DNA of 64,000 bases from an uncultured virus (IMG/VR IMGVR_UViG_3300042882_001870) (IMGVR_UViG_3300042882_001870); one strand, 5' to 3'; counted from the first letter of the stretch, positions 2,145 to 53,336 are shown. The notes: generated by a model not told the origin, from the sequence alone. Translations and numbers: made by a program.

Positions 2145-2915
2145 ATGGCAATCAGACCAGTCAAGAAAGCAAACACAAAATTTCTAAAGAGTCATGAAAT
2201 AGATGAAGCAGATAAAGTTTCTTTTATTAAAAAGGCGAAGAAAAAACCAAACGCGGGTTTATCTAACCTACAATTGAAAGAAATACACCCATTAACCGAA
2301 AATCAAGGAAAAGTTTTTTCTGCTTATGCTGAAGAAAAGAATTTAGTATGTTCGGGTTCTGCGGGAACGGGAAAAACTTTTTGTTTATTGTATTTAATGC
2401 TGCAAGAGTTAGTATATAACAACGAATACGAAAAGATTTTAATTGTTCGTTCTGCTGTCCCAACAAGAAACATAGGATTTTTACCTGGGACGGAAGATGA
2501 AAAATTAGCGATTTACGAAACAACATACAAAAGTATATGTAATGATCTATTTGGAAGAGCAGACGCGTATGAAATCTTGAAGAAGAAAGATCTTATAGAA
2601 TTCGTATCTACTTCTTATATCAGAGGAACTACTTTTGATAATGTTTTAATATTAGTTGATGAAATGCAAAATTGCATATTTCACGAATTAGATAGTGTTA
2701 TCACTCGTTGCGGTAAAAATAGTAGGATATTCTTTTCTGGAGATATGGTCCAATCAGATTTTGACGGAAGGAAAGAAACTAGCGGATTCTTAGATTTTAT
2801 AAAAATTATTAAAAATATGGATTCGTTTTCAATTACAAATTTTACAATAGAAGATTGCGTTCGCAGCGGTCTTGTCCGCGAATATTTAACCGTAAAAGAA
2901 AAATGCGGTTTATAG
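2145..2915 (+). CDS. phoH: PhoH-family ATPase
   Basis: Walker A GSAGTGKT, IGFLPG, YIRGTTF, DEMQN, GDMVQSD and VRSGLV motifs. Confidence 0.95.
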   Translation: MAIRPVKKANTKFLKSHEIDEADKVSFIKKAKKKPNAGLSNLQLKEIHPLTENQGKVFSAYAEEKNLVCSGSAGTGKTFCLLYLMLQELVYNNEYEKILIVRSAVPTRNIGFLPGTEDEKLAIYETTYKSICNDLFGRADAYEILKKKDLIEFVSTSYIRGTTFDNVLILVDEMQNCIFHELDSVITRCGKNSRIFFSGDMVQSDFDGRKETSGFLDFIKIIKNMDSFSITNFTIEDCVRSGLVREYLTVKEKCGL

Positions 2916-3665
2916 ATATTTACATTTAAATTGTTTATGATGTTTTCTTTCGCCTTTTGCGACTGCGATCATACATCCAATATTTAAATTTTGATTTTGA
3001 CAAAATGTAGATAAATTTTTTATTTTTTGAATTTCCCCATCAGGAAAGGTTATTATATAAGACTTTTCCTTTTGGGATTTTACAAATTCTTTAAGTTTAA
3101 TTTTCTTTTCTAATATTATTTGATTTGACGGTTTGTGTCCGAAGTATAATTCTTTATGGAAACATTGCCAATTTTTATGCAATAGTCCCCTACCATTAGC
3201 AACACAACGCATCCCTGATTCTGTTAATTTATATTTTTTACAAAATAAACTTAGATTTTTGATTTCAAAAATTTCATCTTCTGGAGAAACGCAAATATAT
3301 TCTTTTGAATTTTTCTCGGAAAGTATTTGTTTTTTCTTTGGAGAAATAATGTCTCCAGTGGTATCAAAAGTTTTTCCTCCATTGTGTTTGTTTAAAAATA
3401 GTGGATGATTTTTAGCATCTATTTTTGTTAAATAATTTTCTTCGAAATCGGAACATGATTTTGGGTTATTTGGAAACATTTTATGAATTTTAATAATATC
3501 TGGTTCTCCATATTCTTCTCTAAAGGTTTTCACATATTTAGAAGAAGTAAAATAAGATTCCCATAAAACTTTTGGGTGACATCCTTTGGCAGTTTTCCTA
3601 CCATAATAGAATTTTTTATGTTCAGACCAACCAATAATGTAGGTAAAAGGAATATAAATATTCAT
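2910..3665 (-). mobile_element. Free-standing homing endonuclease (GIY-YIG/Seg-like) with two C-terminal NUMOD-like DNA-binding repeats
   Basis: FTYIIGW...KFYYG...YFTSS, conserved E...FLN, and a repeated P.gEi..IKNLS.FC...L....M..VA.G....HK unit. Opposite orientation to its neighbours; overlaps the phoH stop by 6 nt. Confidence 0.75.
3653..3660 (+). promoter_or_regulatory. Late promoter TATAAATA inside the first codons of the endonuclease (antisense to it)
   Basis: Exact consensus on + strand. Confidence 0.5.
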
Positions 3666-6981: not shown

Positions 6982-7007
6982 GGGGAGGGTAAAACCTCCC
7001 CATTTTT
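6982..7007. terminator. Terminator between convergent gp32 and the tail gene
   Basis: GGGGAGG-GTAAAA-CCTCCCC followed by ATTTTT. Confidence 0.8.
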
Positions 7008-9660
7008 ATACCAAAGCTGATGAAGAACCTTTTCTATATTGCATTTGGTGTAATACCGAATCTCTAACGTCCATTTTAGATATACCACCAGCTGCAAAAT
7101 CGTCTCCGCCGCCATTTCCACCGCTCACAGGAGCATTGACGTTTATATTTGGCGCTTGAGATTCTTGTGGGGCTTTTATTGCTTCCATTTTCGATTCTTT
7201 AAGCGATTCATTATTTTTTGTGGTTTCTTCTAATCGTTTTCCGGATAATTCTTCTTTAACGTTTGGTTGTAGATTTGCTGTTTCTTCTGGTCTGAAGAAC
7301 TCCGTAGCCTTTCTAACTATTTTTTCGTCAATAGTTTCTTCTGGTCTGGAGGAATCAGTAGCCTTTCTAACTATTTTTTCGTCAATAGTTTCTTCTGGTC
7401 TGAAGAACTCCGTAGCCTTTCTAACTATTTTTTCGTCAATAGTTTCTTCTGGTCTGGAGGAATCAGTAGCCTTTCTAACTATTTTTTCGTCAATAGTTTC
7501 TTCTGGTTTCTTGAGTTTCCTTAACCTAGAATTATCAAAACCTTCAACTCCAGCAAAAGTGAATCCTTCTCCTATAGCAGACAATCCTTGATATAAACCC
7601 TCATCAACCACTGATTTAATATTTCCGGGTTTTGTAATATTTTCAAGAGTAGAACCAAAAGCGTCTTTTAGAGTATCGACCAAAGTTTTTTCTTTTGGTT
7701 GTTCTTCTGTATCTGTTTGTTGTCCTTTTGGCTTTGCTGCATCTCCAGTACTTGGGGTTTCTTGAGCTAGTTCTGTTTCTGTAGAACCTATTGAATATTT
7801 TTTAAGAATTCCTTCTGCAGCGGAAATCCTTTGGGTCATATTTTCTTTCCCAGCTTTTTCGTATTCTTTCGTCCAAATTTCAGTTGCTTCTTTTGCGGAT
7901 TTTGCAGACTTTATGCCTTTATAAACATTTCCGTATTCTTTATGTTTTGTTTGTCCTGTTATTTCTTCGTAGATATATTCTAATTGTCCATTAAGGGTGT
8001 TCCACTTATCACCTTTTCTAGCTTTCAATTCTTTAAATCTAGGACCATCAACAGACCATTGAGCGATACCTCTCCCTGGACCACCACCTTTTTGTTTTTG
8101 GTTGGGATTGAAGGTGGGGCTTTCTATTTTTAAACTTCCAGTAATACCTGCTGCTTGTTCTTTTGTAAACCCTTTACTAACGAAAAAGTCAAAAACTTTC
8201 TTTTCGTTTGATTGTGTTGCTGTTTCTTTTGTTGCAGTTTCTTTTTTTAGCGAGGGGTCTTCTTGGACCTTTTCTGAAGTTTCTTCTTGTTCTTCTTCCT
8301 CTTCTATTTCTGACGGTACATTTTGTTGTTGTGCTGTGACACCTTTCTTTTTGATATCATCTGCAAGTTTTGGCGTTTCATTTTGCTGTACTGGAGTTGT
8401 TTGGGGTGTTTGAGGTAAACTAGGTTCTTTATATGCAGACTCACTTTCTTTTTCTGTTGGTCTTCTTATAGCGACCAATTCGTGATTTTTCTTTTTGGTA
8501 TTTCTTGTAGATCTTGTTACTCCGCCGCCACCTTTTGTACCTTGATTTCCTCCAATTATAGTAATCATGTTTCCGTCTAAAGAAACAACAAAACCGACGT
8601 GCCCCTTATTTTTATCTGTACCTCTATTAAATACAGCTATGTCTCCGGGTTTCGCGTCATTTAAATTTACTGCTTCTCCATAAGTTAAGAAACTTTTTGC
8701 ACTTTTTACTGATTTTGATTTTTTATATCCATTGGCAGATAAGACAGAATTAACGAATGTTGCGCACCAAGCTTCTGATATCCCAAAACCAGAACCCAAA
8801 TTTGTTTTAAAAAATGCTTCTAATTCTTTTTTGTTTGCCTTTTCTGTCATGCCCTCAAATTTTTCGGCAACTTGTACTAACCTTCCAGTAGGTGTTGTTC
8901 CTGCTCCTGGAGAAGTTTGTTGGGAGCGAGTTTCTGTTTGGGTCCCTGTTGTTGGGGTTGTACCTGTTCCGGTTTGTTCTGCGGTTCTTTGTTCCTGGTT
9001 TTCTCCCTCTTCTTCAAACTCTAAACCTAATGTATCTTTTGCGAATTTCTTCGCCTTTTCCCAAGGAGAGTTATTCATCTCTCTATCATCCAACCAATCT
9101 ATCGCTTTATAGATTCCAGCACCGGCAGCACCAAATAAAAACCCTTTTAGAAGTTTTGGTAATAATGACCCTAATAAACTTCCCAAAAATCCTTTACCAG
9201 TTCCGAACGTTCCTCCTATACCAACACCTTCGGACAATTTTAGAATTCCATTATTCATGGACTCAAAAATTTTATAGAATTTTTCTAGGTTTTCTTTTCC
9301 TATCCCAATCCCACCTGCGGTTTTAGTAACTTCAATGTCCTTTGCTTTTGATTCTAGAAGGTTTTGTGTTACTTGTTGACTCGTTGATGTCGTTTCGATA
9401 TAACGTAAAATGTTATTGTTTAAATCGAATAGAAGCCCTTTAATGTTTTCCAATGCCCTTACCATTGCTTCTCCAAAATAATTCGAAGAATTCTCTTTTG
9501 TTGCAGTAGCGTTGGAAGTAACGTTTTGATTGAGGTTTATGGCTCCATAATTTACTAATTGGAGTTTTCCCGATTGAACCAATGACGTTAATATTTGCGA
9601 TTTATCGTCTAAGGATAAATTCCCAATAGCATTTTTGTTGTTTAGTGCTGGTAACGCCAT
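7006..9660 (-). CDS. Probable tape-measure / baseplate hub (gp29-like) protein with a CHAP/NlpC-P60-like amidase domain and a phage-tail lysozyme domain
   Basis: WCATFVNSVL...GHVGFV...IIGGNQ (Cys-His peptidase). GFTKEQAAGITGSLKIES...GIAQW...QLEYI...YEK (tail lysozyme). Downstream of the gp26-like gene. Confidence 0.75.
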   Translation of the reverse strand: MALPALNNKNAIGNLSLDDKSQILTSLVQSGKLQLVNYGAINLNQNVTSNATATKENSSNYFGEAMVRALENIKGLLFDLNNNILRYIETTSTSQQVTQNLLESKAKDIEVTKTAGGIGIGKENLEKFYKIFESMNNGILKLSEGVGIGGTFGTGKGFLGSLLGSLLPKLLKGFLFGAAGAGIYKAIDWLDDREMNNSPWEKAKKFAKDTLGLEFEEEGENQEQRTAEQTGTGTTPTTGTQTETRSQQTSPGAGTTPTGRLVQVAEKFEGMTEKANKKELEAFFKTNLGSGFGISEAWCATFVNSVLSANGYKKSKSVKSAKSFLTYGEAVNLNDAKPGDIAVFNRGTDKNKGHVGFVVSLDGNMITIIGGNQGTKGGGGVTRSTRNTKKKNHELVAIRRPTEKESESAYKEPSLPQTPQTTPVQQNETPKLADDIKKKGVTAQQQNVPSEIEEEEEQEETSEKVQEDPSLKKETATKETATQSNEKKVFDFFVSKGFTKEQAAGITGSLKIESPTFNPNQKQKGGGPGRGIAQWSVDGPRFKELKARKGDKWNTLNGQLEYIYEEITGQTKHKEYGNVYKGIKSAKSAKEATEIWTKEYEKAGKENMTQRISAAEGILKKYSIGSTETELAQETPSTGDAAKPKGQQTDTEEQPKEKTLVDTLKDAFGSTLENITKPGNIKSVVDEGLYQGLSAIGEGFTFAGVEGFDNSRLRKLKKPEETIDEKIVRKATDSSRPEETIDEKIVRKATEFFRPEETIDEKIVRKATDSSRPEETIDEKIVRKATEFFRPEETANLQPNVKEELSGKRLEETTKNNESLKESKMEAIKAPQESQAPNINVNAPVSGGNGGGDDFAAGGISKMDVRDSVLHQMQYRKGSSSALV
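7280..7507. repeat. 54-bp tandem repeat x4 (alternating A/B units, i.e. 108 bp x2) encoding PEETIDEKIVRKAT(DSS/EFF)R
   Basis: GTTTCTTCTGG recurs at 7280, 7334, 7388, 7442 and 7496. Confidence 0.95.
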
Positions 9661-9661
9661 T

Positions 9662-9847
9662 TTAGTTCCTATTTTGACTTAGTTTTTCGTTTTCTTCGTT
9701 AATATGTTGTAATAATAAATTCAAAAACACTTCTCTTTCCCACGGGATCATATTTTCTAGTTCAGATAAACTATATTTGTGATGTTGCATCATTGCAAAA
9801 TTTGTTTTATAATAGTTTTCCAAATTATCATGAGAAAGAGTTACCCT
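9662..9847 (-). CDS. Small hub-assembly ORF (gp51-like C-terminal part), probably reached by -1 frameshift from the upstream gene; not in the ORF track
   Basis: Open frame RVTLSHDNLENYYKTNFAMMQHHKYSLSELENMIPWEREVFLNLLLQHINEENEKLSQNRN*; first ATG only at 9793. Confidence 0.8.
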   Translation of the reverse strand, partial: RVTLSHDNLENYYKTNFAMMQHHKYSLSELENMIPWEREVFLNLLLQHINEENEKLSQNRN

Positions 9848-10560
9848 AAAAAATTATCAAGACCTACAATATCAATATCGTGTACAAACCCACATTTAGA
9901 ACATTTTACCGTTAGGGTTTCTTTTAATACTGGTAAATTGCTGAAAAATTCTTCTACCTTTTTAAATTGATCAATAGACATAGATTCTAAAAATTCTAAT
10001 ACCTCTGATTTTGGCGTTTCGTTTTTGTAATAGAAATTTTGTTCGTCGAATATGTAATCTAATGAGTTATAAATTACCTCTAATGTTAGGGTAACGGCGT
10101 CAGTAATTTCAGTATTCAATTTAGACAATTCTGCAATATCAGGATATTTCATTTTAAACCCAACACTATCCGTTAATCGAATTATGTCGTTATTTTCTTT
10201 TTTGTCTACAGAAACTTCTAATAGGTTTATAGAAACCGGCATTAAGTTCCCGCAAATATTTTCTTCTATTTTATTATTGCATCTATATTTTGTTTCTACA
10301 ATTTCTCCAATAGACCTTGCTCTAAGTTGTAGGAAAAAGTATTCTATGTCTATTTGATTGAGTTTGTTAACGTCAATATCTGAGGTACAACAATTTTTTA
10401 TTATTTGTTTAATATTATTTAAAGCGAATTCTGCGTCTTCAGATTGTTTTGCTAGTAATAGAATTTTTTGTTCTTTTACTAGGAAAGGTCTAAACATAAC
10501 CGTTTGATTTGAAATTGGTAATGTCGTTTCATACAAAGGACTTTCGATTTTTGGTAACAT
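9841..10560 (-). CDS. Baseplate hub subunit / assembly chaperone (gp26/gp51-like)
   Basis: MLPKI..P.Y...LP, FRPFLVKEQKILL, LRARSIGE, KCSKCG, GLDNF. Confidence 0.85.
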   Translation of the reverse strand: MLPKIESPLYETTLPISNQTVMFRPFLVKEQKILLLAKQSEDAEFALNNIKQIIKNCCTSDIDVNKLNQIDIEYFFLQLRARSIGEIVETKYRCNNKIEENICGNLMPVSINLLEVSVDKKENNDIIRLTDSVGFKMKYPDIAELSKLNTEITDAVTLTLEVIYNSLDYIFDEQNFYYKNETPKSEVLEFLESMSIDQFKKVEEFFSNLPVLKETLTVKCSKCGFVHDIDIVGLDNFLG

Positions 10561-10574
10561 AATTTACTCCATGA

Positions 10575-11252
10575 TTAAAATACTGGGAATGGTATAGATC
10601 CACCTAAAGGAATTGCTGCGTTGTAGTATGTGTATGCAAAAGTTACTGTTAGTTTATGTATTGCGTTACCATTTTCCCAAGAAAGGGGCATTTCGTTTAA
10701 AGATATTGGAAATGCGTGAAACAAACCAACCCAATACGATGGGTCGTTTTTTACGTTATATTGCGTGATTAATATAAATGCTTCGTATTGATTTTTATAT
10801 TTAAAATCGTAGTTTACTACTGGACCGTCAGTAAATAGACCAACAACGTCTTCTATTCCTATTTGGAATGGGAAAAAAGACGCGTTTGAAATATAATTCA
10901 TCCAATATTCAAAAATCCAACGTTCAATCATATTGTCTGAGCAAATAAAAGTTAGGTTTATTTTGTTATATGAATTTTGTATTGGGTGTAGGATTTCTGG
11001 ACCGTATAACTTTTGCGTAACCGCAGAAAATGTCCTTGATGGTAATTCTGCCGCTTCGCAGTGAAATTTCATTTTTTTCCAAGCAGAAGCTGGGTCTTCT
11101 CCGTCAAGACCTGCAGCCGCCATCAAATCCAAAGCAAAAACCGGATTTGTTGGGGTGATCATAACGTCAAAGTTACAGGGTCTTGCTACTTCCGTTTTAG
11201 AGAAAGTTTCAAGAAAATTTCTTATATCTGAGTTATATTTTATTTCGCTCAT
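10575..11252 (-). CDS. 54: Baseplate-tail tube initiator gp54-like
   Basis: ARPCNFDV, CEAAELPSR, FEYWMNYI, AFPISLNEMPLSW, LTVTFAY (tube-protein fold). Confidence 0.75.
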   Translation of the reverse strand: MSEIKYNSDIRNFLETFSKTEVARPCNFDVMITPTNPVFALDLMAAAGLDGEDPASAWKKMKFHCEAAELPSRTFSAVTQKLYGPEILHPIQNSYNKINLTFICSDNMIERWIFEYWMNYISNASFFPFQIGIEDVVGLFTDGPVVNYDFKYKNQYEAFILITQYNVKNDPSYWVGLFHAFPISLNEMPLSWENGNAIHKLTVTFAYTYYNAAIPLGGSIPFPVF

Positions 11253-15868: not shown

Positions 15869-16636
15869 ATGGAAAAAACTAAAAATTTCCCTGGGATGGA
15901 TGGGTTTATTTGGTGGACTGGTATAGTAGAAGACCGTAAAGACCCTTTGAAAGTTGGTAGGGTTAGGGTTAGAATTTTTGGTTGGCATAAAGACGATAAA
16001 TCAAACGTTCCTTCTGACGGTTTATTATGGGCGCAACCTGTTATGTCGGCAAACGCATACCAAATTTCTCACGTACCAAAGGAAGGAGAAGTTTTGTTTG
16101 GGTTTTTTATGGATGGAGAATACGCGCAAGTACCGTTTTATATGGGGGTAATTCCAAATATACCAGAAATAAGGTATCCTAAGGAAAAAGGTTTTGCAGA
16201 CCCAGCAACAGAAGAAGAAATAAAACAAAGACCAAGAACATTGCATTCTGGACAAACGAGATATCCTGGAGACGGAGAATTAAATCAGCCAACAATTAGC
16301 AGGTCTGCTAGAAACGAAAATATGGATCAAACGCCATATGGTAAGTCTCATGGAGGGAAATATCCATATGTATTTTCAATACAAACTGAATCTGGGCATT
16401 ATTTGGATTTAGACGATACTCCAAACGCGGAAAGGGTTACTTTAATTCATAGAACTGGAAGTTTTATTTCTATAGATTCTGGAGGAAATATCACCATTTC
16501 GGGTAAAAATGTTAATATAATTGCGACTGGTTCCATAAATAATAAAGCTCCTGGCGGCATTAATGAAGATACTCCGAATCACAAAACTACAGGTACTCAC
16601 ACAGATGCTATTGGTATACACTATAGCGGGGGCTAA
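15869..16636 (+). CDS. 5: Baseplate central spike gp5 (OB domain plus short beta-helix, no lysozyme domain)
   Basis: WWTGIVEDRKDPLKVGRVRVRIFG, VFGFFMDG-like motif, TESGH..DDTP.AER...HRTGS. Confidence 0.88.
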   Translation: MEKTKNFPGMDGFIWWTGIVEDRKDPLKVGRVRVRIFGWHKDDKSNVPSDGLLWAQPVMSANAYQISHVPKEGEVLFGFFMDGEYAQVPFYMGVIPNIPEIRYPKEKGFADPATEEEIKQRPRTLHSGQTRYPGDGELNQPTISRSARNENMDQTPYGKSHGGKYPYVFSIQTESGHYLDLDDTPNAERVTLIHRTGSFISIDSGGNITISGKNVNIIATGSINNKAPGGINEDTPNHKTTGTHTDAIGIHYSGG

Positions 16637-27096: not shown

Positions 27097-30000
27097 ATGC
27101 TAAATTTTAATGTTGAGCCGTACAGAGACGATTTCGATCCTAATAAACATTTTCACAGAATTCTTTTCAAACCTGGAAAAGCGATTCAGGCAAGGGAATT
27201 GACTCAATCCCAAACGATTTTACAGGATCAAATTTCCAAATTTGCATTTCATATTTTTTCACAAAATACCCCAGTAACTGGAGGTAATGTAACCATCAAT
27301 ACCGATTGTTATTATCTTCGACTATTACCAGAATATGAAGAAAATTCTATTGATGTAAATAATTTTCTCAATAGAATCATTAGGGACGATACTGGAACTG
27401 TTATTGCTAGAGTTCTTGCAGTAGCAGAAGAAACTTTTGTTAACGAAGTTTCCGCAGAAGCCCCAACTTTAATTGTTTCTTATATTTCCGGACAACAATT
27501 TGATGCTGGAGATATAATTTATTCTGCTGACGATTCTAATTTTACTGCACAATTAACTTCAGCAAATCATTCTGGAAAATCTTCTGTCGCTCATATTGCA
27601 GAAGGGGTTTTCTTTGTCGTAAATGGATATAGTTACTCAAATATTCAAAATCCAGACGGAACTTATTCAAAATATACTATTGGTAATTTTGTTGGAGTTC
27701 AACCGCAAATTGCAATTCTTGATAAGTATGGAAATAAACCAACATTAAGAGTGGGTTTAAATATAAACGAAACAGTTTATGATTATGTTGACGACCCTTC
27801 TTTATTAGATCCAGCTATTGGTGCATCCAATTATCAGGCTCCTGGCGCAGATAGATACGTCATTGAATTGGATTTAGAAACCAGACCTTTATCCATTGGT
27901 GACGACCAAAGCTTCATTGAATTGGTCAGAATGGAAGAAGGAGAAATAAAAAAGCAAGTAAACAATACTGTATATTCTGTTATTGATGATTATTTCGCCA
28001 AAAGGACTTCAGAAACAAACGGAAACTATATTGTAAACGATTTCGCATTTACGCCAAAAATAAATCCAGCAGACGCAAATTCTTATATTATGACTGTAGG
28101 AAAGGGTGTTGCTTATGTAAATGGGTATAGAGTAGAAAATCAATCTGATATTGGCATTCTTGGTCAAAGAGCAAGAACAACAGAATCTAGTAATAATGCG
28201 ACTGTATATTTTGAGTATGGAAACTATTTCTATGTTGATAATTTAGAAGGGTTTTTCGAAATAACGAAATTACCAAAAGTAGATATTCATTGCGTACCTT
28301 ATAATAATATAAATGTTTCTTCAACCACAGAATATAATAAAACTTTAGTCGGAACTTCTTATGTGAGGAACTTAGAACAATATTCTGGCGATATTTCTAA
28401 TCCAGATTCTATCGTTTATAAAATGTTTGTTACCGATATACAAACAAGAAACATAAATGGGGCTGCGGCGAATACTGCACCAACATTTGACCGTTTATGG
28501 TTACAGTCTGGAACTTTTACTACTACTGCAAATGCTTATGTTGGAGTTACGGTTTCTATTACTTCTGGGTCTAGTGCCGGAGATACTAGAACAATCGTCG
28601 AATCTTACTCTAGCGGCATGATTGTAGTTAGCTCAAATTTTTCTGAAAGAATAGATTCCACTTCAAAATACACACTAAATTTTGGCATAAAAGACGCAGA
28701 AAGTATTGTACTATCCACTTCTCCCGTGTCAAAAACGATAAGAAGTAATATAAATTCTCAACACGGTAAAGAAAGAGGGTTTTCTACTGGTTATGCCAAA
28801 TTGGTCGAGCCAAGCGATCCAGAAATGGTGTGGAACCTTGGACATTCTTATGTTAAACAATTAACAGATACCAGTTATCAGGGAACATATCTATACGCAG
28901 ACCAATCTTTACAATTCGCAAACGGTAAACTGGAATTATATTTAACGGCTCCAAATTCAACGACTTTCTCTGGTTCAGGTTCTTTAAGTGCAGATCAAAT
29001 AAAATCGAATTTTATAGTGTCAAGAAGTGCTAATGGACAAATTTTGACCTTTGACACGATTTCAAGAAAAGTTATTGTAGAACCAACTAACAGACAGTCT
29101 GCTAAATTAGAAATTTCTAATCTCGGTAATATTTCTTTTGATATTGATATTATTTCTAAATTAAACGTCAATAATGCCGACGCTACGAATATTTTAAGAA
29201 CTAAAGAATTATACCAAGGCAATACTTCTTACTATTCAACAGGAACTTCTGTTGTCGATAAAGGTAATATTAGATTTAATTCGGCTTTAGGTCAAGTTTA
29301 TATTCCCTTTGCAGAATTAGTACCAATAACACAAATACAAAGTTTATATGTTTGTGACGTAAAAAGGATTCTTAAAATATATGAAACAGCAAATTCTTCA
29401 ACAGCCCCGAATTCCACTTTAACTAATGTAACAGACGTTACGAAATATTACACTTTTAATAGTGGACAAAAAGATTCGTATTATGATCACGCATATATTC
29501 AATTAAATTTTGGCGCTCCAATAAGAAAAGGTAATTTATTAGTAATATTCGATTACTATTCACATTCTGGTGATATAGGTTACTTTAGCGTAATGTCTTA
29601 TTTTAAGGGTGTAAGAAAAGAAGAATATTCCGAAGTATTAAATTCTAATTATACCGCTAAAAATGGCGATGTATATAGTGCGTCTGATAGTATTGACTTC
29701 AGACCAACCAGAAAAAATGGAGATGCAAATTTCGTTTTTGATAAAGATTACATTGTTCCAAATTACCTAACTGCATTTACTGGAGATTATGAATACTATC
29801 TAGGTAGAAAGGACATTTTAATATTAACAAAAGATAGAACATTTGAAATCGTACAAGGAGTTCCTGCGCAATATCCAAAATTTCCAACCATACCAGATGC
29901 TTCTATGGATATTGCCAAAATAAATTTAGACCCATATACAGCATATATAACTGGAGAAAATTCAAAAGTAACAAATATTGCAATTCAAAAAATAGCCCAT

Positions 30001-33000
30001 AAAACATGGAAGATGAAGAACATTTCCGATTTGGAAAAGAGAGTTAATAATATTGAATATTATACTTCCCTAAGTTTATTAGAAAAGAACGCGGAATCTT
30101 TACAAATTCCAGACGAAAACGGATTAAATAGGTTTAAATATGGTATACTAGCAGATGATTTTACTGGATTCTCTGCTTCTGATACTGCAAATTACGACTT
30201 CAATAGCGCTGTATTAAAACTTGAAAGGTCTTTAACTGCTTCACATACAGTAGAAAATTGGAAGTTGCAGTGTTCTGCTCTTTCTAGAAATATGGGAGCG
30301 ATTGATAATTCTCAATTAACAGATTTTGCAATAACAAGCAACAAAACAAATAAATTCTACACGTTACCATTTACAAAAAAACCAGTTATTGAACAAAAAC
30401 TAGCAAGCAGAACTATAAACGTCAACCCTGTTGCTGTTATTGATGTTGTTGGAGACTTGGATTTGTCCCCTCCAATGGATACTTATGTCGATAACTTAAA
30501 ACTACCAAGTTTATTGATAGCCGACCCAGCGTTTAAATTCTATGAACCATCCGATCAAGTAAATCTTTTAAGTCAGTCTGATTGGAAACTCGTTGCTGGA
30601 ACTACTACAGAAAAATTGGTTGATACAACTAGAATAGTTGATTCTGCTGGTGGTACTACTATAACAAAAGAGTTCCTAAAAACTTGGCAAGAATCGAGGG
30701 ATAGTTTATATGGATACTACAAAGATTTAAATACAAACTTTATAGAAACCAACGATTTCATTACAGATATTAATATAATGCCCTTTGTTCGAGCGCAAGA
30801 AATTGAGTTTAAAACTAAAGGTTTATTAATTAATACCCCGCTAAATTGTTATTTCGATAACGTAAACATTAACGAAAACGTCAGATTACCAAATCTTCTA
30901 AAAGTTGCGGTTTCTGGTGGAGAATTTAAAGAAGGTGATGTTATTGGTTATTTATCTGCAGGGGTTTTCGTTCCTACAGGAAAAATACTCGGGGTTGCAT
31001 ATGAACCAGTTTCTAGATTTCCTTCTGGTGCTCTAACGACTCTAAGACTAAGAATGCTTCACCAATACCTATATGTTGTTGGAGATATTGGTATTACAAG
31101 ATATGCGGCTCCAGACACCAATTCGATTAATGTTGGCGTATTTAATACAAACGGAAGTTTTTCTAGGACAACCGCTTCTGGCGTTTTAGTAGAAACGTTA
31201 CATTCGTCTGGATTATTAGGGGCTGTTTCTGGAGGAACTGCGCAAACAGCAGATTTATACGAAGACGAAACCGGGAGAGACTATTCAGCAATAAGTAGAG
31301 CAGAATCTTTGGGTCAAAATAATAATACATATTTACCAAAAACCCTATTTAAGAGAACGGTTCGTAGGCAATTGGGAGTAACTTCAATTACTTTATCGTC
31401 AATGGCTTCTTCTACTAATAATTTTTATAAAGATGCTATTGTTACTATTTTCAATCCAAATCCAATAAATGACGAATGGAGCAGTTCTGCAGTAATTTCT
31501 GCTTATAATGGGTCTACTAAAGTAGCAACATTATCCACAACAATAAATGTAGAAATTTCTTCTGCCACTATTTACTCTATAAGTAGAAATACTTCTATTT
31601 TCAAAACTTCTGCTTCTACACCATTAGCAACTTCAAGAAATAACCCAGTTAATTTCTCAGAACCAATGCCGTTTATGTCTTCTGTTAATGGTATGTTTTG
31701 TGGTATATTTAAAGTTCCTGGTGGTAAGTTTTTCTCTGGAACTAAAGTTTTCAGAGTGGATAATGGTATTGATGGTAATGCAAATTCTGCTACAACATAC
31801 GCAGAATCGTCCTTCTTTGCTTCAAACTTGGCGACGCAAAGTCAAAGTTTACAATTTGCGTCAAAAATACCTGGATGGACAGAAACGGATAAAATCAACA
31901 AGAGTTCTACTAGGAAGGAGCAAGAATATATTGCCCCACCTCCACCTCCTCCACCACCAGAAGACCCTTTGTGTCAATCTTTTATCGTCGAAGGAAATTT
32001 ATATCCTAATGGGGTTTTCTTAAAATCTTTAAGTCTATTTTTTAGAACAAGGTCTATAGATCAACCAATTTATATTTATTTGGTTGAAACATTAAATGGG
32101 TATCCTACATCAAAGGTTCTTGAAAATTCTAAAGTCATCATAGACCCATTAGTTGTAAATACTTCCGAAAGACCTCATTACTTGGATCAAAATTCAAAAA
32201 CAACATTTGAATTTGATGTTCCAGTATACATCAAACCCGACATTTTGTACGCATTTGTTGTTAGATCTTCTTCTTTGGAGTATACTTGCTGGTTGGCTGC
32301 TCAAAACGATTTTGCGTTGGCGTCAACTTCAAAAAATCTTCCAACAGACCCAGACCCACAAACAACAGCTAAATTGAGTTCTAATCCATATGTTGGAACG
32401 TTATTTGTATCTCAAAACGCAATAACTTGGAGCGCTGAACAAACAAAATCGTTAATGTTTACCATTGATGCTTGTGAATTCGACGTTTCCAAAACTCCGA
32501 ATATTGATTTTGTCATCCCAAAAAGCGCCCCAAGATCTAAGCCAATAGATTTTGCTTCTGCGTATTTTAAAGATGATTTACAAGTTATTGCTAATACAAC
32601 ATATTCTGTATTCTCGCAAAGAAATTCTATTGAATATGATAAGTTGAATCTATCAACTTCGGATTTCACTCCAACACAGACTAAAATAAATTATTCTTAT
32701 GATACAACACCAAAAAATACTTGGTTGTTAACAGGAACAAAAACTCCTATTAATCCTGGTAGGTATGGAACTCCTTCTGCTGATCAGTTTTTAACTGATG
32801 GTAGGGGTGCTAGAATTATTGCTGGAAATAGTAATAATTCTTTAGTTATGACTGCGCAATTAACATCTTCAAATAAATGGGTTAGCCCCATGATTTCTGA
32901 TGATGGTGTTTCTTTATATACAACAAAATGGTTGATTAACGATCTAGGAGTATATGATTATAATATCAATATTGTTGATGGGGGTAAAAATTACTCCAAC

Positions 33001-33864
33001 ACGACTACTGGAGTAAGAATAGAAGCTGATGGTTATGGGGTTGGTGCACTTGCAGACGTTGTTGTTGATCCGTCTAATGGAAATTCTATTTCTAAAATAG
33101 TATTTGCTAATAATGGACGTAATTATGCAGTAAGACCTAAATTATATCTTTCTACAATATCTACTGCAAATACTGTATCTGGTAATGATAATATCATATT
33201 TAAAACAGAAAATGGGAGCATTGCTAATGGTTCTATTTGGTATGGTCAATCTATATCTAATGGTAATAGTTCGTTTGTTACAACAGTAGTTTCTGCAAAC
33301 AATGCCAATGGTTGGGTTACGGTTTCTAATAATGTATTTGGAACTTCGACGAATCAAACTTTCTATATCGATGGAGAACCAAGATTTGAAAATGGAAAAC
33401 CCGCGATTATTATAAATTGCGAAACTTGTACTAGAACAGGAAACGGTCTGGCAAAATATATTTCTAAACGGGTTGTTCTTGCTCCTGGAGATGAAGCCGG
33501 AGATCTAAGAGTTTATTATACTGCATATAAACCATTGAATACAGAAATATATGTTTATTATAAGATTCTTTCTGGAGAAGACGAACAAAAATTTGATGAT
33601 GGAACTTGGCAAATAATGACTCCAATTTCTTCTACTAATAGGGTTTCCTCTACAAGAACAGATTTAATTGAATATGTTGCTGCTCCAGGTAAGGATAATA
33701 TAGCTAATAATAATATTGTTTACACCAGTAGTTCTGGAGCAACATATTCAACATTTAACCAATTTGCTATTAAGGTGGTAATGACAACTACAGATCCTAC
33801 ATATGTTCCTTTCTTAACTGATATTAGGGCAATTGCTCTTCCTGCTGGAACTGGAATGAGGTAA
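27097..33864 (+). CDS. Very large virion structural protein (VrlC/DUF4815-like)
   Basis: FNVEPY.DDFD..K.FHRILFKPG..IQARELTQSQTILQ, APGADR, LEKRV.NIEYYTSLSLLE, DPLCQSF. Confidence 0.85.
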   Translation: MLNFNVEPYRDDFDPNKHFHRILFKPGKAIQARELTQSQTILQDQISKFAFHIFSQNTPVTGGNVTINTDCYYLRLLPEYEENSIDVNNFLNRIIRDDTGTVIARVLAVAEETFVNEVSAEAPTLIVSYISGQQFDAGDIIYSADDSNFTAQLTSANHSGKSSVAHIAEGVFFVVNGYSYSNIQNPDGTYSKYTIGNFVGVQPQIAILDKYGNKPTLRVGLNINETVYDYVDDPSLLDPAIGASNYQAPGADRYVIELDLETRPLSIGDDQSFIELVRMEEGEIKKQVNNTVYSVIDDYFAKRTSETNGNYIVNDFAFTPKINPADANSYIMTVGKGVAYVNGYRVENQSDIGILGQRARTTESSNNATVYFEYGNYFYVDNLEGFFEITKLPKVDIHCVPYNNINVSSTTEYNKTLVGTSYVRNLEQYSGDISNPDSIVYKMFVTDIQTRNINGAAANTAPTFDRLWLQSGTFTTTANAYVGVTVSITSGSSAGDTRTIVESYSSGMIVVSSNFSERIDSTSKYTLNFGIKDAESIVLSTSPVSKTIRSNINSQHGKERGFSTGYAKLVEPSDPEMVWNLGHSYVKQLTDTSYQGTYLYADQSLQFANGKLELYLTAPNSTTFSGSGSLSADQIKSNFIVSRSANGQILTFDTISRKVIVEPTNRQSAKLEISNLGNISFDIDIISKLNVNNADATNILRTKELYQGNTSYYSTGTSVVDKGNIRFNSALGQVYIPFAELVPITQIQSLYVCDVKRILKIYETANSSTAPNSTLTNVTDVTKYYTFNSGQKDSYYDHAYIQLNFGAPIRKGNLLVIFDYYSHSGDIGYFSVMSYFKGVRKEEYSEVLNSNYTAKNGDVYSASDSIDFRPTRKNGDANFVFDKDYIVPNYLTAFTGDYEYYLGRKDILILTKDRTFEIVQGVPAQYPKFPTIPDASMDIAKINLDPYTAYITGENSKVTNIAIQKIAHKTWKMKNISDLEKRVNNIEYYTSLSLLEKNAESLQIPDENGLNRFKYGILADDFTGFSASDTANYDFNSAVLKLERSLTASHTVENWKLQCSALSRNMGAIDNSQLTDFAITSNKTNKFYTLPFTKKPVIEQKLASRTINVNPVAVIDVVGDLDLSPPMDTYVDNLKLPSLLIADPAFKFYEPSDQVNLLSQSDWKLVAGTTTEKLVDTTRIVDSAGGTTITKEFLKTWQESRDSLYGYYKDLNTNFIETNDFITDINIMPFVRAQEIEFKTKGLLINTPLNCYFDNVNINENVRLPNLLKVAVSGGEFKEGDVIGYLSAGVFVPTGKILGVAYEPVSRFPSGALTTLRLRMLHQYLYVVGDIGITRYAAPDTNSINVGVFNTNGSFSRTTASGVLVETLHSSGLLGAVSGGTAQTADLYEDETGRDYSAISRAESLGQNNNTYLPKTLFKRTVRRQLGVTSITLSSMASSTNNFYKDAIVTIFNPNPINDEWSSSAVISAYNGSTKVATLSTTINVEISSATIYSISRNTSIFKTSASTPLATSRNNPVNFSEPMPFMSSVNGMFCGIFKVPGGKFFSGTKVFRVDNGIDGNANSATTYAESSFFASNLATQSQSLQFASKIPGWTETDKINKSSTRKEQEYIAPPPPPPPPEDPLCQSFIVEGNLYPNGVFLKSLSLFFRTRSIDQPIYIYLVETLNGYPTSKVLENSKVIIDPLVVNTSERPHYLDQNSKTTFEFDVPVYIKPDILYAFVVRSSSLEYTCWLAAQNDFALASTSKNLPTDPDPQTTAKLSSNPYVGTLFVSQNAITWSAEQTKSLMFTIDACEFDVSKTPNIDFVIPKSAPRSKPIDFASAYFKDDLQVIANTTYSVFSQRNSIEYDKLNLSTSDFTPTQTKINYSYDTTPKNTWLLTGTKTPINPGRYGTPSADQFLTDGRGARIIAGNSNNSLVMTAQLTSSNKWVSPMISDDGVSLYTTKWLINDLGVYDYNINIVDGGKNYSNTTTGVRIEADGYGVGALADVVVDPSNGNSISKIVFANNGRNYAVRPKLYLSTISTANTVSGNDNIIFKTENGSIANGSIWYGQSISNGNSSFVTTVVSANNANGWVTVSNNVFGTSTNQTFYIDGEPRFENGKPAIIINCETCTRTGNGLAKYISKRVVLAPGDEAGDLRVYYTAYKPLNTEIYVYYKILSGEDEQKFDDGTWQIMTPISSTNRVSSTRTDLIEYVAAPGKDNIANNNIVYTSSSGATYSTFNQFAIKVVMTTTDPTYVPFLTDIRAIALPAGTGMR

Positions 33865-33865
33865 T

Positions 33866-34096
33866 ATGTTAGTAAAAACTGAGGAAGGAAACTTTATTAG
33901 GGATACAGAATCTATGGCGCTTCTTAATACTGATAGAAGCGCCAGAGAAGAATATTTCATGAAAGCGAAAATGTTACATATACAAAAGACAGAAATTGCT
34001 AATATAAATAATGAGATAGATTCGTTAAAAAACGACATAGGTGATATTAAATCTATGCTAATTCAATTAATATCGGATAAAACTAATGGCAAATAA
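33866..34096 (+). CDS. Small coiled-coil virion protein
   Basis: FIRD.ES.ALLNTD...EID.LKNDI.DIKSML; usual position after VrlC-like genes. Confidence 0.7.
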   Translation: MLVKTEEGNFIRDTESMALLNTDRSAREEYFMKAKMLHIQKTEIANINNEIDSLKNDIGDIKSMLIQLISDKTNGK

Positions 34097-37000
34097 TATA
34101 ACCAATATCTATTTCTCTAATACTTTCGGTGATTTAGTAAGAACCGCAAATAACCTAGTAAACGCTTGGCAATATTTGGGGTTTTATGATTGGGATAAAC
34201 CTTCTGGAACTTTTTCTATATCAAGTTCTGGAACTGGGTTTCTTTCCAATACGATATCAGTATTTTCTAGAGAAACTAGGGTAGAAGGTGTTGGCAGTAG
34301 TTTATACGTCCAAAATAATGCTGAAGTGGGGAAAACTCTATCTCTCACAGATAGAGCGAATAACGTAACGTTGTATTCGAACGGAACTTCAATATTTTCT
34401 GGTGGATATCAAAATTATGCTTCTTACTTAACCGGAATTGGTTATGAAAATGTTAACAATAGTTACGGTATAGTTACTCTTGCTAAATCTCTATTTGCCA
34501 ATAGCGTAGATATTCTAGAAACAGCCAATGTAAATTTAATACAAGCAAACAATCAAATAATTTATTACAATTTATCTGGGAATACTGCACAATTTTCTGC
34601 GAACGTTACAGTTGGAAATTTGGTAAGTAATAATTTTATATATGCTGCAAATAATATTTCTACTAATAGAAATTTATTTGTGTCTGTAAATTCTCATGTT
34701 ATAGGTTTATCTTATACCGATAGATTGCAGGCAAATACTTCTGCAAATACTAGATATCTTTCTGTAACTGATGACGCCTTTGTAGATTACTTGCAAGCGA
34801 ATACAAATTTACAAACAGGGGTTGCTGTTGCAAATACGAGAGTCGTTACTGGTATTGTTCAAGCGAATAATACTGTTATTGCTAATACAGTTACTGCTAA
34901 CTCAATAGTTACTTCGCCAACATTACATGGTAGTAGTAACGTATTCAGCGGATATGTACAAGCTAATACCAGAATCGTTACTGGTATTGTTCAAGCAAAT
35001 AATACCGTTATTGCTAATACCGTTTCCGCCAACTCTTTGGTTACTACTCCAACGTTGCATGGTAGCAGTAACGTATTCACCGATTATGTTCAAGCTAATA
35101 CGAGAGTTGTTACAGGTATAGTTCAAGCTAATACTAACATATTTACTGCAACAATCTCTGCTAATAGTTCTATAGTTACTCCTACAGTTCAAGCTTCTTC
35201 GAACGTTTATACAGGATTTCTTAAAGCAAATAATTTAATTGTTACTGATGTTATTGAATCTCAATCTAGAGTTATAACAGATACTGCTTTAGCTAATACT
35301 AGAATAATTACAGCGACTTTACAATCTAATAATTCTATACTATCAAACGACATTTTAGCTAACACTAGAGTAGTTACTGGTATTGTTCAAGCGAACACCC
35401 ACATATATACCGACTACGCTCAAGCTAACACTAGAGTAGTTACTGGTATTGTTCAAGCTAATACTAACGTAATAACTAATGATGTTTTAGCAAATACTAG
35501 AGTTGTTGCAGGATTCGTTCAAGCAAACAATACCGTAATATCTAATACTATTTCTGCTAATACTGTTGTTACTTCTCCTACTTTACATGGTAGTAGTAAT
35601 GTATTTTCTGGATATGTTCAGGCTAATACTAGAGTTGTAACAGGTATTGTTCAGGCAAATAATATAGTTCATTCTAATACTGTTTCTGCTAATACTGTTG
35701 TTACTTCTCCTACTTTACATGGTAGTAGTAATGTATTCTCTGGATATATTCAGGCTAATACTAGAGTTGTCACTGAAACTGTTCAATCTAATACTAATGT
35801 AATAACTAATGATGTTTTAGCAAATACTAGAGTTGTCACTGAAACTGTTCAATCTAATACTAATGTAATAACTAATGATGTTTTAGCAAATACTAGAGTT
35901 GTGACAGGTATTGTCCAAGCTAATACTAATGTAATAACTAATGATGTTTTAGCAAATACTAGAGTTGTGACAGGTATTGTCCAAGCTAATACTAGAGTTG
36001 TCACTGAAACTGTTCAATCTAATACTAATGTAATAACTAATACTGTTTCAGCTAATTCATTAGTTACTTCTCCTACTTTACACGGTAGTAGTAACGTATT
36101 TACTGCGATTTTGCAAGCAAATAGTGCAGCAAACACTCAAAACCTATCAGTAACTCAGAGAATATTTACAAATGATTTTATATCTAATACTAACATTTTA
36201 GTAGTAAATAATGCAAATACTACCAATTTATACGCATCAAATCTAGTTCAAGCTAATAGTGTAGGATATCTAGATAACAGCCAAAATCCATCTGTATATA
36301 ATGTATATTCAAGAGAAGCACTATTCAATAATGCTTCGATAGTTTCAAACATGGTTGTTGGAGGAGACTTAAAAGTTTTAGGGGCTACTCAGTATGATGG
36401 TAAATCAATAAGATTAAGTGCTAACAGCCCTTCTTGGTGGACCAACACCATTCCTGCAGAACTGATTGTTAATAGAAAATTAGATGAGGCAAATGGTATA
36501 TGGTATTCTGCAAACTCTGACGCAGCAATATCTTGGTCCGATCTATCTTTAAGATGGAGAGCAGTCGATGTTCCTAATTCTACCGCCAACAGTAAAATTT
36601 ATACTAATTTATTGCTAGAGTTAGATATTGCTGATAATCTAAATGAAACTAGTTCCGTAAGAGTTCCTTCTTCTAGAGTACATTCTCTAACAAGAACACA
36701 CGCAAATTCTGCATTCTTAAATTCTAATTCTGCTTATACACATGCAAATTCTGTTTATACACACGCAAATTCAGCAATAACTATAGGGACAACGCCAGTA
36801 TATTTAAATAGAACTAATACAGTTTTTGGTGGTATATCAACATTGTCGGTAACAGGAACAACATTATCTAACTTTGTTGTTGCAAACACTAATGTAATTT
36901 CTCCAATAGTTGTTTCAAACAGCTTACAAGCAAACAATTTTGCTAATACCCAAAATCTTTCTGTAACCCAAACAATATTTACTAGAGATTTTCGAGCAAA

Positions 37001-51643: not shown

Positions 51644-53332
51644 ATGGCAACAAATAAACCCTTTGAAATAAAAAACGGATTAATTGTTGGGGATACTCTT
51701 GTCGCAAATTCAACTGGTCATTGGGTAGGTCCATCAACAAATATAACCGGAGATCAAGGATTTCAAGGAAATATTGGGATAACTGGAAATGTTGGATTTA
51801 CTGGAATAGCAGGATTCCAAGGTAGACAAGGAGTACAAGGTTCTACTGGTCCTCAAGGCGTACAAGGTGCTTTGGGTGCTACTGGTAATATTGGAGTTCA
51901 GGGTGCTATCGGAATAGCAGGATTTCAAGGTAGGCAGGGCGTTCAAGGTTCTACTGGTCCTCAAGGCGTACAAGGCGTGGTTGGTGCTACTGGAAATGCT
52001 GGAGTTCAGGGCGCTATCGGAATATCAGGATTTCAAGGTAGACAAGGAATACAAGGTTCTACTGGTCCTCAAGGCGTTCAGGGAGCAGTTGGTGCTACTG
52101 GAAATAGTGGAATAGCAGGATTCCAAGGCAGACAAGGGTTTCAAGGCACACAAGGTCCACAGGGACCACAAGGAGTTCAGGGAGCAGTTGGTGCTACTGG
52201 TAATGCTGGTGTGCAAGGTGCTATTGGAATAGCAGGATTTCAAGGTAGACAAGGAATACAAGGTTCTACTGGACCACAAGGAGCACAAGGCGCTGTAGGT
52301 GCTACTGGTAATGTTGGTGTGCAAGGTGCTATTGGAATAGCAGGATTTCAAGGCAGACAAGGGTTTCAAGGTTCTACTGGTCCACAAGGAGCACAAGGCG
52401 CTGTAGGTGCTACTGGTAATGCTGGAATAGCAGGATTTCAAGGAAGACAAGGATTCCAAGGCGCACAAGGACCACAAGGACCACAAGGCGTTCAAGGCGC
52501 TGTTGGTGCTACTGGTAATACTGGAGTTCAGGGTGCTATTGGAATAGCAGGATTCCAAGGTAGACAAGGAGTCCAAGGTCCACAGGGACCACAAGGTGTA
52601 CAAGGTGCTGTTGGCGCTACTGGACCGCAAGGAGTTCAAGGGACAGTTGGAATAGCAGGATTTCAAGGTAGACAAGGAGTCCAAGGTCCACAGGGACCAC
52701 AAGGCGTACAGGGAGCAGTTGGCGCCACTGGTCCTCAAGGGGTTGCTGGAATAGCAGGATTCCAAGGCAGACAAGGATTCCAAGGCGCACAAGGTCCGCA
52801 AGGAGCACAAGGAGCACAAGGCGCTGTAGGTGCTACTGGTCCTCAAGGAGTTGCTGGAATAGCAGGATTCCAAGGCAGACAAGGATTCCAAGGAGCAAAT
52901 TTAATAATTCCTGCCAATAATCTTAGTACATTAGGAGTAAATGCTGCACTTGGCGGAACTGGAGAAATACGAGCATCTGGAAATATCATAGCAGCATACT
53001 CAGATCAAAGATTAAAGAAAAATATAAACAAAATTGAAAATTGTTTAGAAAAAGTATTAAGTATAAGTGGAATTTATTTTACTCAAAATAAGTTAGCAGA
53101 AAAGTTTGGATATAACGATTATAGTAAAAAAATAGGATTGATAGCACAGCAAATAAAACCTTTTGCTCCTGAAATAGTTAAACCTGCTCCTTTTGATACG
53201 GATTCCGATGGAAATAGCATTTCTGGGGAAAATTACATAACAGTACAATATGAAAAATTAATTCCAATAATAGTAGAAGCTATAAAAGAACAACAAAAGC
53301 AAATTAAAGAACTTTTAACATTAAGAAACTAA
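51644..53332 (+). CDS. Collagen-like fibre protein 1 with peptidase S74 chaperone
   Basis: 128 uninterrupted Gly-X-Y triplets (residues 36-419); [10 protein letters not shown]...GLIAQ...APFD...YEKLIP. Confidence 0.9.
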
Positions 53333-53336
53333 TCAG

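Follow-up and report, generated by a model that had tools for sequence, protein, structure and literature searches.

The 64,000-nt stretch of DNA analysed here (the window) comes from an uncultured virus (IMG/VR IMGVR_UViG_3300042882_001870) and carries on its minus strand a gene related to T4 gene 26, an open reading frame (ORF) that continues from the end of this gene in the -1 frame, and a gene for an 884-aa protein. Comparison of this locus with its relatives suggests that the gp26-like gene and the -1 ORF are probably one tail assembly chaperone gene with two products made through a -1 ribosomal slip, a T4-like pair of the G/GT type, and we put the probability of this reading at about 0.7. 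Most ribosomes would reach the stop codon of the gp26-like frame and release a 239-aa protein, the counterpart of T4 gp26 (TAC-N), while a minority would, three codons short of the end, slip back on U_UUU_UUA by one base and read 61 more codons to make a protein of ~299 aa. The longer form would join the PF12322 domain to a helical C-terminal domain, as T4 gp51 (TAC-NC) does. If the two forms act as lambda G/GT do, the N-terminal part that they share would bind the product of the next gene downstream, the putative tape measure protein, and the C-terminal domain would bring in a protein of the tube-like or hub type; both forms would leave before the tail is completed. What we infer here are the ribosomal slip, its frequency, the binding partners and the role of the 884-aa protein as the tape measure. 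An earlier reading of the window, made from the sequence alone (the sequence-only reading), had proposed a G/GT-type pair of 239 aa and ~299 aa that would normally be annotated as two genes, and this proposal is supported by the conservation of the site and of the coding sequence, by colinearity with gp51 and by the predicted fold.

The putative slip site and the frame beyond it

The locus consists of the following elements, assigned by direct reading, profile matches and an AlphaFold2 (AF2) model.

9841..10560, minus strand: gp26-like gene, putative short chaperone form (TAC-N, 239 aa), from PF12322, phrog_150 and the AF2 model
9847..9853, minus strand: slippery heptamer T_TTT_TTA in X_XXY_YYZ phase in the 0 frame of the gp26-like gene, read directly
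9841..9843, minus strand: TAA stop codon of the 0 frame, one codon past the heptamer
9662..9847, minus strand: -1 ORF of 61 codons and a stop, gp51 C-terminal ('T') domain, from phrog_634 and the alignment with T4 gp51; it would be reached only via the shift
9791..9793, minus strand: earliest ATG in the -1 frame, at codon 19, where a gene caller would place the start, inside predicted helix 1 and in a Met/Leu column conserved in the family
7006..9660, minus strand: 884-aa protein at the tape-measure position, with Pfam matches to CHAP and Phage_lysozyme2
10575..11252, minus strand: tail-tube-like (gp54-like) gene directly upstream of gp26, matching phrog_45 'tail tube' at E 1.7e-28

Read directly, the 239-codon ORF on the minus strand (9841-10560) has the 3′ end CTT GAT AAT TTT TTA GGG TAA. 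In the -1 frame, a TAA (9856-9854) lies immediately 5′ of the T run and is followed by 2 + 61 open codons, of which AGG (9847-9845) is codon 1 after the slip and AAC (9667-9665) the last before the TAA stop (9664-9662). The 884-aa ORF begins with an ATG at 9660, a single nucleotide (9661) past this stop. Ahead of its first ATG, the -1 frame has one canonical start, a TTG at codon 9 (9823), and there is no ATG, GTG or TTG between the slip site and that codon. The sequence-only reading had described a 239-aa gene ending in AAT TTT TTA GGG TAA with an in-frame heptamer at 9853-9847, a -1 frame open for 61 codons that stops 1 nt before the 884-aa ATG, and a first ATG lying 18 codons in; all three descriptions were confirmed, the ATG being codon 19 (9793).

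The heptamer by itself is unremarkable, because eight in-frame T_TTT_TTN sites occur in the 48 ORFs of the window (19,851 codons; 35% G+C DNA). The gp26-like site is alone among the eight in sitting at a gene end and opening a long -1 frame, 61 codons versus 0-19 for the other seven. It is conservation, not the occurrence of the heptamer, that exceeds chance. Related loci were gathered from named phages and IMG/VR; 125 had a gp26 match, and after removal of four in which the match lacked the C-terminus, T_TTT_TTN was present in the gp26 frame in all 121 analysable loci. As the two locus sets overlap and include the window, they were collapsed to 88 distinct junctions, with 83 distinct complete ones, and these were used for the counts that follow. 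The named hosts include Prochlorococcus, Synechococcus, Pelagibacter, Vibrio, Sinorhizobium, Ochrobactrum and Desulfovibrio. A tblastn search with the 61 residues of the -1 ORF matched 569 phage records; in 545 of these, 80% or more of the query is aligned, and the alignment takes in the residues that precede the ATG.

Of the 88 distinct junctions, 71 have C as the seventh base of the heptamer, 10 have A and 7 have T, and two further loci read by hand outside the script have T_TTT_TTT (phiM19) and T_TTT_TTG (phiM9). The six T's show zero entropy in all 83 complete junctions, compared with 1.4-1.9 at neighbouring third positions. The invariant T's include the third base of the preceding codon, which is always NNT while its residue varies, and the first Phe codon, which is always TTT. 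The run is exactly six T's long in 81/88 junctions and at least seven in 7/88, and the base before it is not T in 83/83. A stop codon in the 0 frame follows after one codon (3 nt) in 85 of the 88 junctions; the distance is two codons in 2 others and eight codons in Mosig. A stop fixed one codon past the heptamer forces the rare NTA at -1 codon 2; this spacing may merely keep the short form short or may also aid the slip.

The 83 distinct complete -1 ORFs, which range from 57 to 86 codons, align without gaps over their first 57 columns. Conserved residues appear from the first column onward, well ahead of the usual Met: R at column 1 (74/83), L at column 9 (81/83), N at column 11 (78/83) and F at column 17 (83/83). 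The Arg at -1 codon 1 is encoded by CGN in junctions whose heptamer ends in C and by AGG in those whose heptamer ends in A. Entropies at the three codon positions are 0.93/0.58/1.19 for -1 codons 2-19 and 0.86/0.48/1.26 for -1 codons 20-57, and 1.08/0.67/1.45 for the 0-frame end of gp26. The coding pattern thus matches on the two sides of the heptamer but is out of phase, the periodicity being displaced there by one base. The first -1 ATG lies at codon 20 in 46 ORFs, at codon 33 in 12, at codon 19 in 8 and at codons 13-16 in 4; overall it is found at codon 13 or later in 70/83 and within codons 2-5 in 12/83, and one ORF has none. Judged from this coding signature, the -1 frame is translated starting at the slip site. 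A slippery heptamer at the stop of homologues and coding conservation upstream of the ATG at 9793 were the two checks named in the sequence-only reading, and the loci bear out both, the first in 121/121 and the second in 83 ORFs aligned gap-free from codon 1.

Among the best 150 of 3,840 cluster representatives of the gp26 family (E ≤ 0.001), lengths range from 163 to 262 aa and none is of fusion length. Only 14 longer proteins (at least 108 aa) with the -1 domain turned up in a search for them; nearly all are singletons, and two have 299 aa. The maintained stop would fit a need for both forms, not for the long form alone.

Correspondence to T4 gp26/gp51 and to tail assembly chaperones

The 239-aa protein matches PF12322 (T4_baseplate) over residues 9-238 with an E-value of 4e-51 and 174.2 bits (curated cut-off, 24.5 bits) and phrog_150 ('baseplate hub') with E 5.5e-56. 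A single PF12322 copy is found in the full record, a 73.7-kb fragment estimated to be 44% complete. With E 6.4e-27, the -1 ORF is a match for phrog_634 ('baseplate hub assembly catalyst'); a second match falls on the C-terminal end (positions 235-278 of 282) of phrog_150, a gp26/gp51 profile. No Pfam match to the 61 codons was found in the Pfam copy searched; some proteins holding the -1 domain are tagged PF28602. The 'hidden ORF' of the sequence-only reading therefore exists but is not anonymous, as it corresponds to the gp51 C-terminal domain. The AF2 model of this domain (predicted local distance difference test, pLDDT, 74) has helices at residues 9-22, 27-31 and 35-60. According to the model and the alignment, a start at M19 would strip the domain of most of predicted helix 1 and of three of its most conserved residues.

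T4 genes 26 and 51 are divergently transcribed, and their products are paralogues (gp26 vs gp51, blastp E 2e-6). T4 gp26 (208 aa) matches phrog_150 positions 14-235 and leaves the extension beyond position 235 uncovered, and residues 3-248 of T4 gp51 (249 aa) match positions 13-280; gp51 also matches phrog_634 with E 1.2e-23. PF12322 spans residues 1-206 of 208 in gp26 and residues 1-201 of 249 in gp51. Residues 201-244 of gp51 align with residues 1-45 of the -1 ORF (blastp E 2e-5; hhalign E 2.3e-4, probability 44%), so that the alignment begins at the very first codon past the slip site. A natural in-frame metagenomic fusion of 299 aa (P0002) aligns with gp51 residues 15-237 in one piece across the junction (E 1e-6). 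Two PF12322 genes are present in T4 and one in each of the complete genomes of P-SSM2, S-WAM1, Pelagibacter phage Mosig and S-CAM1. From the reach of PF12322, the gp51 extension, the one-piece alignment of the fusion and the gene counts, it follows that the unshifted product would be the counterpart of T4 gp26 and the shifted product would have the gp51 architecture. The predicted fusion is colinear with T4 gp51.

The T4 proteins and the window thus share PF12322, present in both gp26 and gp51, and the gp51 extension (~48 aa) has its homologue in the -1 ORF of the window. T4, and Aeromonas phage Aes508 which shares its two-gene arrangement, differ from the window in having two divergently transcribed paralogous genes without a slip site, whereas the window would use one gene and a frameshift. 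T4 gp26 and gp51 are described as 'hub assembly chaperones', gp51 as essential and absent from the particle, and gp29 as the tape measure, in excerpted text of Leiman 2010 (PMC3004832). We also considered that many gp26 homologues might be natural in-frame fusions, as suggested by the reach of phrog_150 into the -1 domain. This idea was rejected, as true fusions are rare; phrog_150 extends over the -1 domain because T4-type gp51 members are included in it.

The AF2 model of the gp26-like protein (pLDDT 87) was scanned against 48,161 chains with VIA-align. The top four chains all fall on residues 1-93, the N-domain:

3fgx_B: Z 8.1, uncharacterised protein
2ob9_B: Z 6.8, root-mean-square deviation 4.1, 83 of 104 residues aligned, HK97 tail assembly chaperone
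3klu_A: Z 6.8, YqbN
5ir0_B: Z 5.5, ORF19 of a Vibrio element resembling phage-inducible chromosomal islands (PICI-like)

The Z values are moderate, and the next chain in the scan, an unrelated one, has Z 4.5. YqbN is a member of the XkdN-like chaperone family. Foldseek gave no match between the gp26 model and the PDB at E ≤ 0.001, and a search of PDB sequences with the gp26 profile returned only a zinc-ribbon-like match at E 0.45. In the predicted model, the gp26 N-domain (residues 1-93) resembles the tail-assembly-chaperone fold. The matched chaperone chains are 96-119 residues long; gp26 differs from them in being about twice as long, with an added C-terminal half that bears a zinc ribbon with four conserved Cys.

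The gene order at the locus is tube-like gene, gp26, -1 ORF and large protein. A tube-like gene lies upstream of gp26 in 32/32 loci with a tblastn match (among L005-L040), and its Mosig counterpart is annotated 'baseplate tail tube initiator'. Complex prediction for the -1 domain with the upstream tube-like protein gave a score of 0.00, which weighs neither way. In lambda, G and GT are made at ~30:1 and neither is found in the virion; the tape measure is bound by G and the tube protein by T, according to sections of Atkins 2016 (PMC5009743). As in lambda, a -1 shift close to the 3′ end of a single gene would yield both a short and a longer form, and this gene lies between a tube-type gene and what is by position the putative tape-measure gene; the similarity in fold to the HK97 chaperone 2ob9 (Z 6.8) is a further likeness. 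In contrast, lambda G/GT has no sequence similarity to gp26, the profile search of solved structures being empty in this respect, and the lambda heptamer is G_GGA_AAG while that of the window is of the form U_UUU_UUN.

The window shares the heptamer U_UUU_UUA, and indeed the context AAU UUU UUA GGG, with HIV-1 gag-pol. This coincidence is confined to the window, since 71/88 related junctions have U_UUU_UUC, and the window differs further from HIV-1 in having no downstream stem-loop and in being read by bacterial ribosomes.

Proposed ribosomal slippage and its alternatives

A tandem -1 ribosomal slip on U_UUU_UUA would be the simplest reading of these junctions and is favoured over transcriptional slippage. 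Several observations nevertheless weigh against it. No stimulator was found in the window, where the 70 nt past the site fold with -5.4 kcal/mol (z +0.4; the shuffles kept mononucleotide content only), and no conserved downstream RNA structure was found among the relatives, the RNAalifold consensus having 0 pairs. A Shine-Dalgarno (SD)-like GARGG at -14 to -10, 9 nt before the run, is present in 78-82 of 83 relatives and reads GTAGG in the window; it is inseparable from protein constraint because GARGG also encodes a conserved Glu-Gly. Moreover, a homopolymer alone cannot tell ribosomal from transcriptional slippage, and the related loci share ancestry, so the 121 loci are not 121 independent observations of phase.

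Folding of the 37 junctions that are <80% mutually identical gave z < -2 in eight. Strong hairpins begin 5-6 nt past the heptamer in P-SSM2 (L001 1495-1601; -18.8 kcal/mol over 70 nt, z -4.0) and in S-WAM1 (L002 1495-1601; -27.0 kcal/mol over 70 nt, z -6.0). These may represent a lineage-specific stimulator, with the window and most relatives having none. A low unstimulated slip frequency would fit a chaperone pair, by analogy with the ~30:1 ratio of lambda G and GT.

The shift could instead arise during transcription, if RNA polymerase added one U on the T run in some transcripts and ordinary translation of these then yielded the same fusion. A pure homopolymer, extended to seven or more T's in the 7/88 junctions noted above, would suit such a mechanism, as would the failure to find a conserved RNA stimulator. 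However, the run is held to exactly six T's in 81/88 junctions and is never preceded by T in 83/83, and efficient bacterial transcriptional slippage sites have approximately nine or more A/T. The run is also always in the X_XXY_YYZ phase, which transcription does not need, although shared ancestry weakens this point. An 'other mechanism' is attributed to Vladimirov et al., 2022 at the level of its title and might be taken to mean transcriptional slippage, but the PRFect authors, in the part of their text that deals with it, give this mechanism as two separate genes. We therefore regard transcriptional slippage as unlikely and retain ribosomal slippage as the preferred reading.

Alternatively, two separate proteins might be produced, with gp26 ending at its stop and a small gp51-like protein starting at ATG 9793, at TTG 9823 or by coupled re-initiation. 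In the public records of P-SSM2, Mosig, F86, phiM19 and phiM9, a separately starting small gene is indeed annotated as 'baseplate hub assembly catalyst', and the 12/83 junctions with an ATG within codons 2-5 would permit it. Nor does the absence of an SD motif count against such a start, because 24 of the 48 genes in the window have no SD-like motif and its lack argues nothing. In contrast, codons 1-18 are conserved as protein without gaps, upstream of any ATG in 70/83 junctions, and the window offers no ATG, GTG or TTG ahead of codon 9. Separate initiation also leaves the invariance of the T run at synonymous sites unexplained, and in T4 gp51 this domain is joined in frame to one resembling gp26. 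Production of two independent proteins is less probable than a shift in transcription, and we consider it very unlikely. It is scarcely credible that the T run merely consists of the codons for a conserved Phe-Phe/Leu at the gp26 C-terminus with an accidentally open frame downstream, since, frequent as in-frame T_TTT_TTN is here (8 sites in 48 ORFs), only the gp26-like site opens >19 codons, the -1 ORF belongs to a recognised family (phrog_634) matched in 569 phage records, and the synonymous positions in the run are invariant.

Neighbouring genes, annotation and significance

In addition to its CHAP and Phage_lysozyme2 domains, the 884-aa protein has a glycine-rich hydrophobic stretch near residues 150-185, and its gene contains a tandem repeat at 7280-7507 (a 54-nt unit in 4.2 copies, or a 108-nt unit in 2.1 copies with 100% match) that encodes repeated 18-residue units. 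A long ORF starts between -17 and +32 nt from the stop of the -1 ORF in 82/83 loci examined. The best blastp match between the 884-aa protein and T4 gp29 was not significant (E 0.16), and residues 1-220 and the last 244 residues matched nothing in PHROG below E 0.02. A match to phrog_9570 ('tape measure') covers the lysozyme domain only. A homologue search with residues 1-220 yielded eight close relatives, too few for a profile. Ten downstream proteins at other loci match PHROGs of unknown function or 'endolysin', with one weak tape-measure match (E 2e-4). The name 'tape measure' is accordingly positional for the 884-aa protein, because no significant similarity to gp29 was found and its ends match no family. 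The label 'tape-measure-like' in the sequence-only reading fits the position and make-up of the protein, but similarity to T4 gp29 was not found.

Two relatives of the 884-aa protein, P0016 and P0022, keep the N-terminal 220 residues (98% and 55% identity, respectively) and carry other cell-wall-degrading domains. P0016/P0022 have PF05951/PF08291 in place of CHAP, and P0022 has PF01464 in place of Phage_lysozyme2, which looks like a modular swap of lytic domains. The CHAP and Phage_lysozyme2 lytic domains sit in the 884-aa protein; the gp5-like hub protein (15869-16636, plus strand; only 255 aa) is matched by just the N-terminal portion of gp5 profiles and has no lysozyme domain.

The window as a whole represents a T4-like baseplate/tail module with gp2-like, gp4-like, gp48, gp53, gp5-N-like, gp25, gp6, gp7-like, gp8, gp32 and gp59-like genes, among others. 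IMG/VR classifies the 73.7-kb record as 'provirus', yet the gene content of the window is that of a lytic T4-like myovirus; no integrase was seen among the ORFs scanned in the window. On the plus strand, three adjacent paralogous genes (51644-56718; 562, 569 and 560 aa) have strong collagen-like tail-fibre matches, and two giant ORFs of 2,255 aa (27097-33864; phrog_358, unknown function) and 1,955 aa (34086-39953; tail-fibre-like C-terminus) are separated by a 76-aa ORF. An HNH endonuclease-like ORF (2910-3665, minus strand), flanked by genes for a PhoH-like protein and an exonuclease and encoded on the opposite strand, may be a mobile homing gene.

The gp26/gp51 frameshift in T4-like phages appears to have been published in 2022 (Vladimirov, Gautam and Davidson, Virology) and to be known biology, as far as the passages that cite this paper tell. 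One such passage refers to poly-T stretches as -1 signals already known from TAC-N genes in T4-like phages (PMC12846349), and another states that some T4-like phages have one short and one longer fused gene instead of frameshifting (PMC10274946), both citing Vladimirov et al., 2022. The sequence-only reading was not aware of any description of such a frameshift for T4-like phages; that none exists appears to be wrong, as the 2022 paper is cited for exactly that. Among the papers searched directly, none itself describes the gp26/gp51 frameshift, the 2022 paper having surfaced via citations only, and the words 'cyanophage' and 'T4-like' are absent from the covered portion of the Atkins 2016 review (PMC5009743). 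As cited, the published system has the same genes and the same logic as the window, and the phage of the window differs in being an uncultured relative. Since the idea has apparently been in print since 2022, the value of the present analysis lies in confirmation and numbers, not in discovery. If the published work covers only the identity of the genes and the two-gene solution of T4, these loci could conceivably represent a minimal recoding cassette of their own (exactly six T's held in one phase, a stop one codon on in 85/88 junctions, and no RNA structure shared by the family), in which the nearby stop or GARGG might be the sole stimulator or the event might be partly transcriptional, although we think this doubtful.

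Eight annotated records with the one-gene arrangement were compared, and none (0/8) has a joined coding sequence. A truncated ORF is annotated in 6/8, under the name 'baseplate hub assembly catalyst' or gp51 in five, and the RefSeq entries of S-WAM1 (NC_031944.1) and S-CAM1 (NC_020837.1) have no gene annotated over the gp51-like -1 ORF. If the reading proposed here is correct, the annotation of the window should be changed to one gene with two products (239 aa and ~299 aa), and the public annotation of hundreds of T4-like phages from sea and soil would be in error. The poorly understood 'hub assembly catalysts' gp26 and gp51 of T4 would then come under the general rule by which long-tailed phages make a short and a long tail chaperone.

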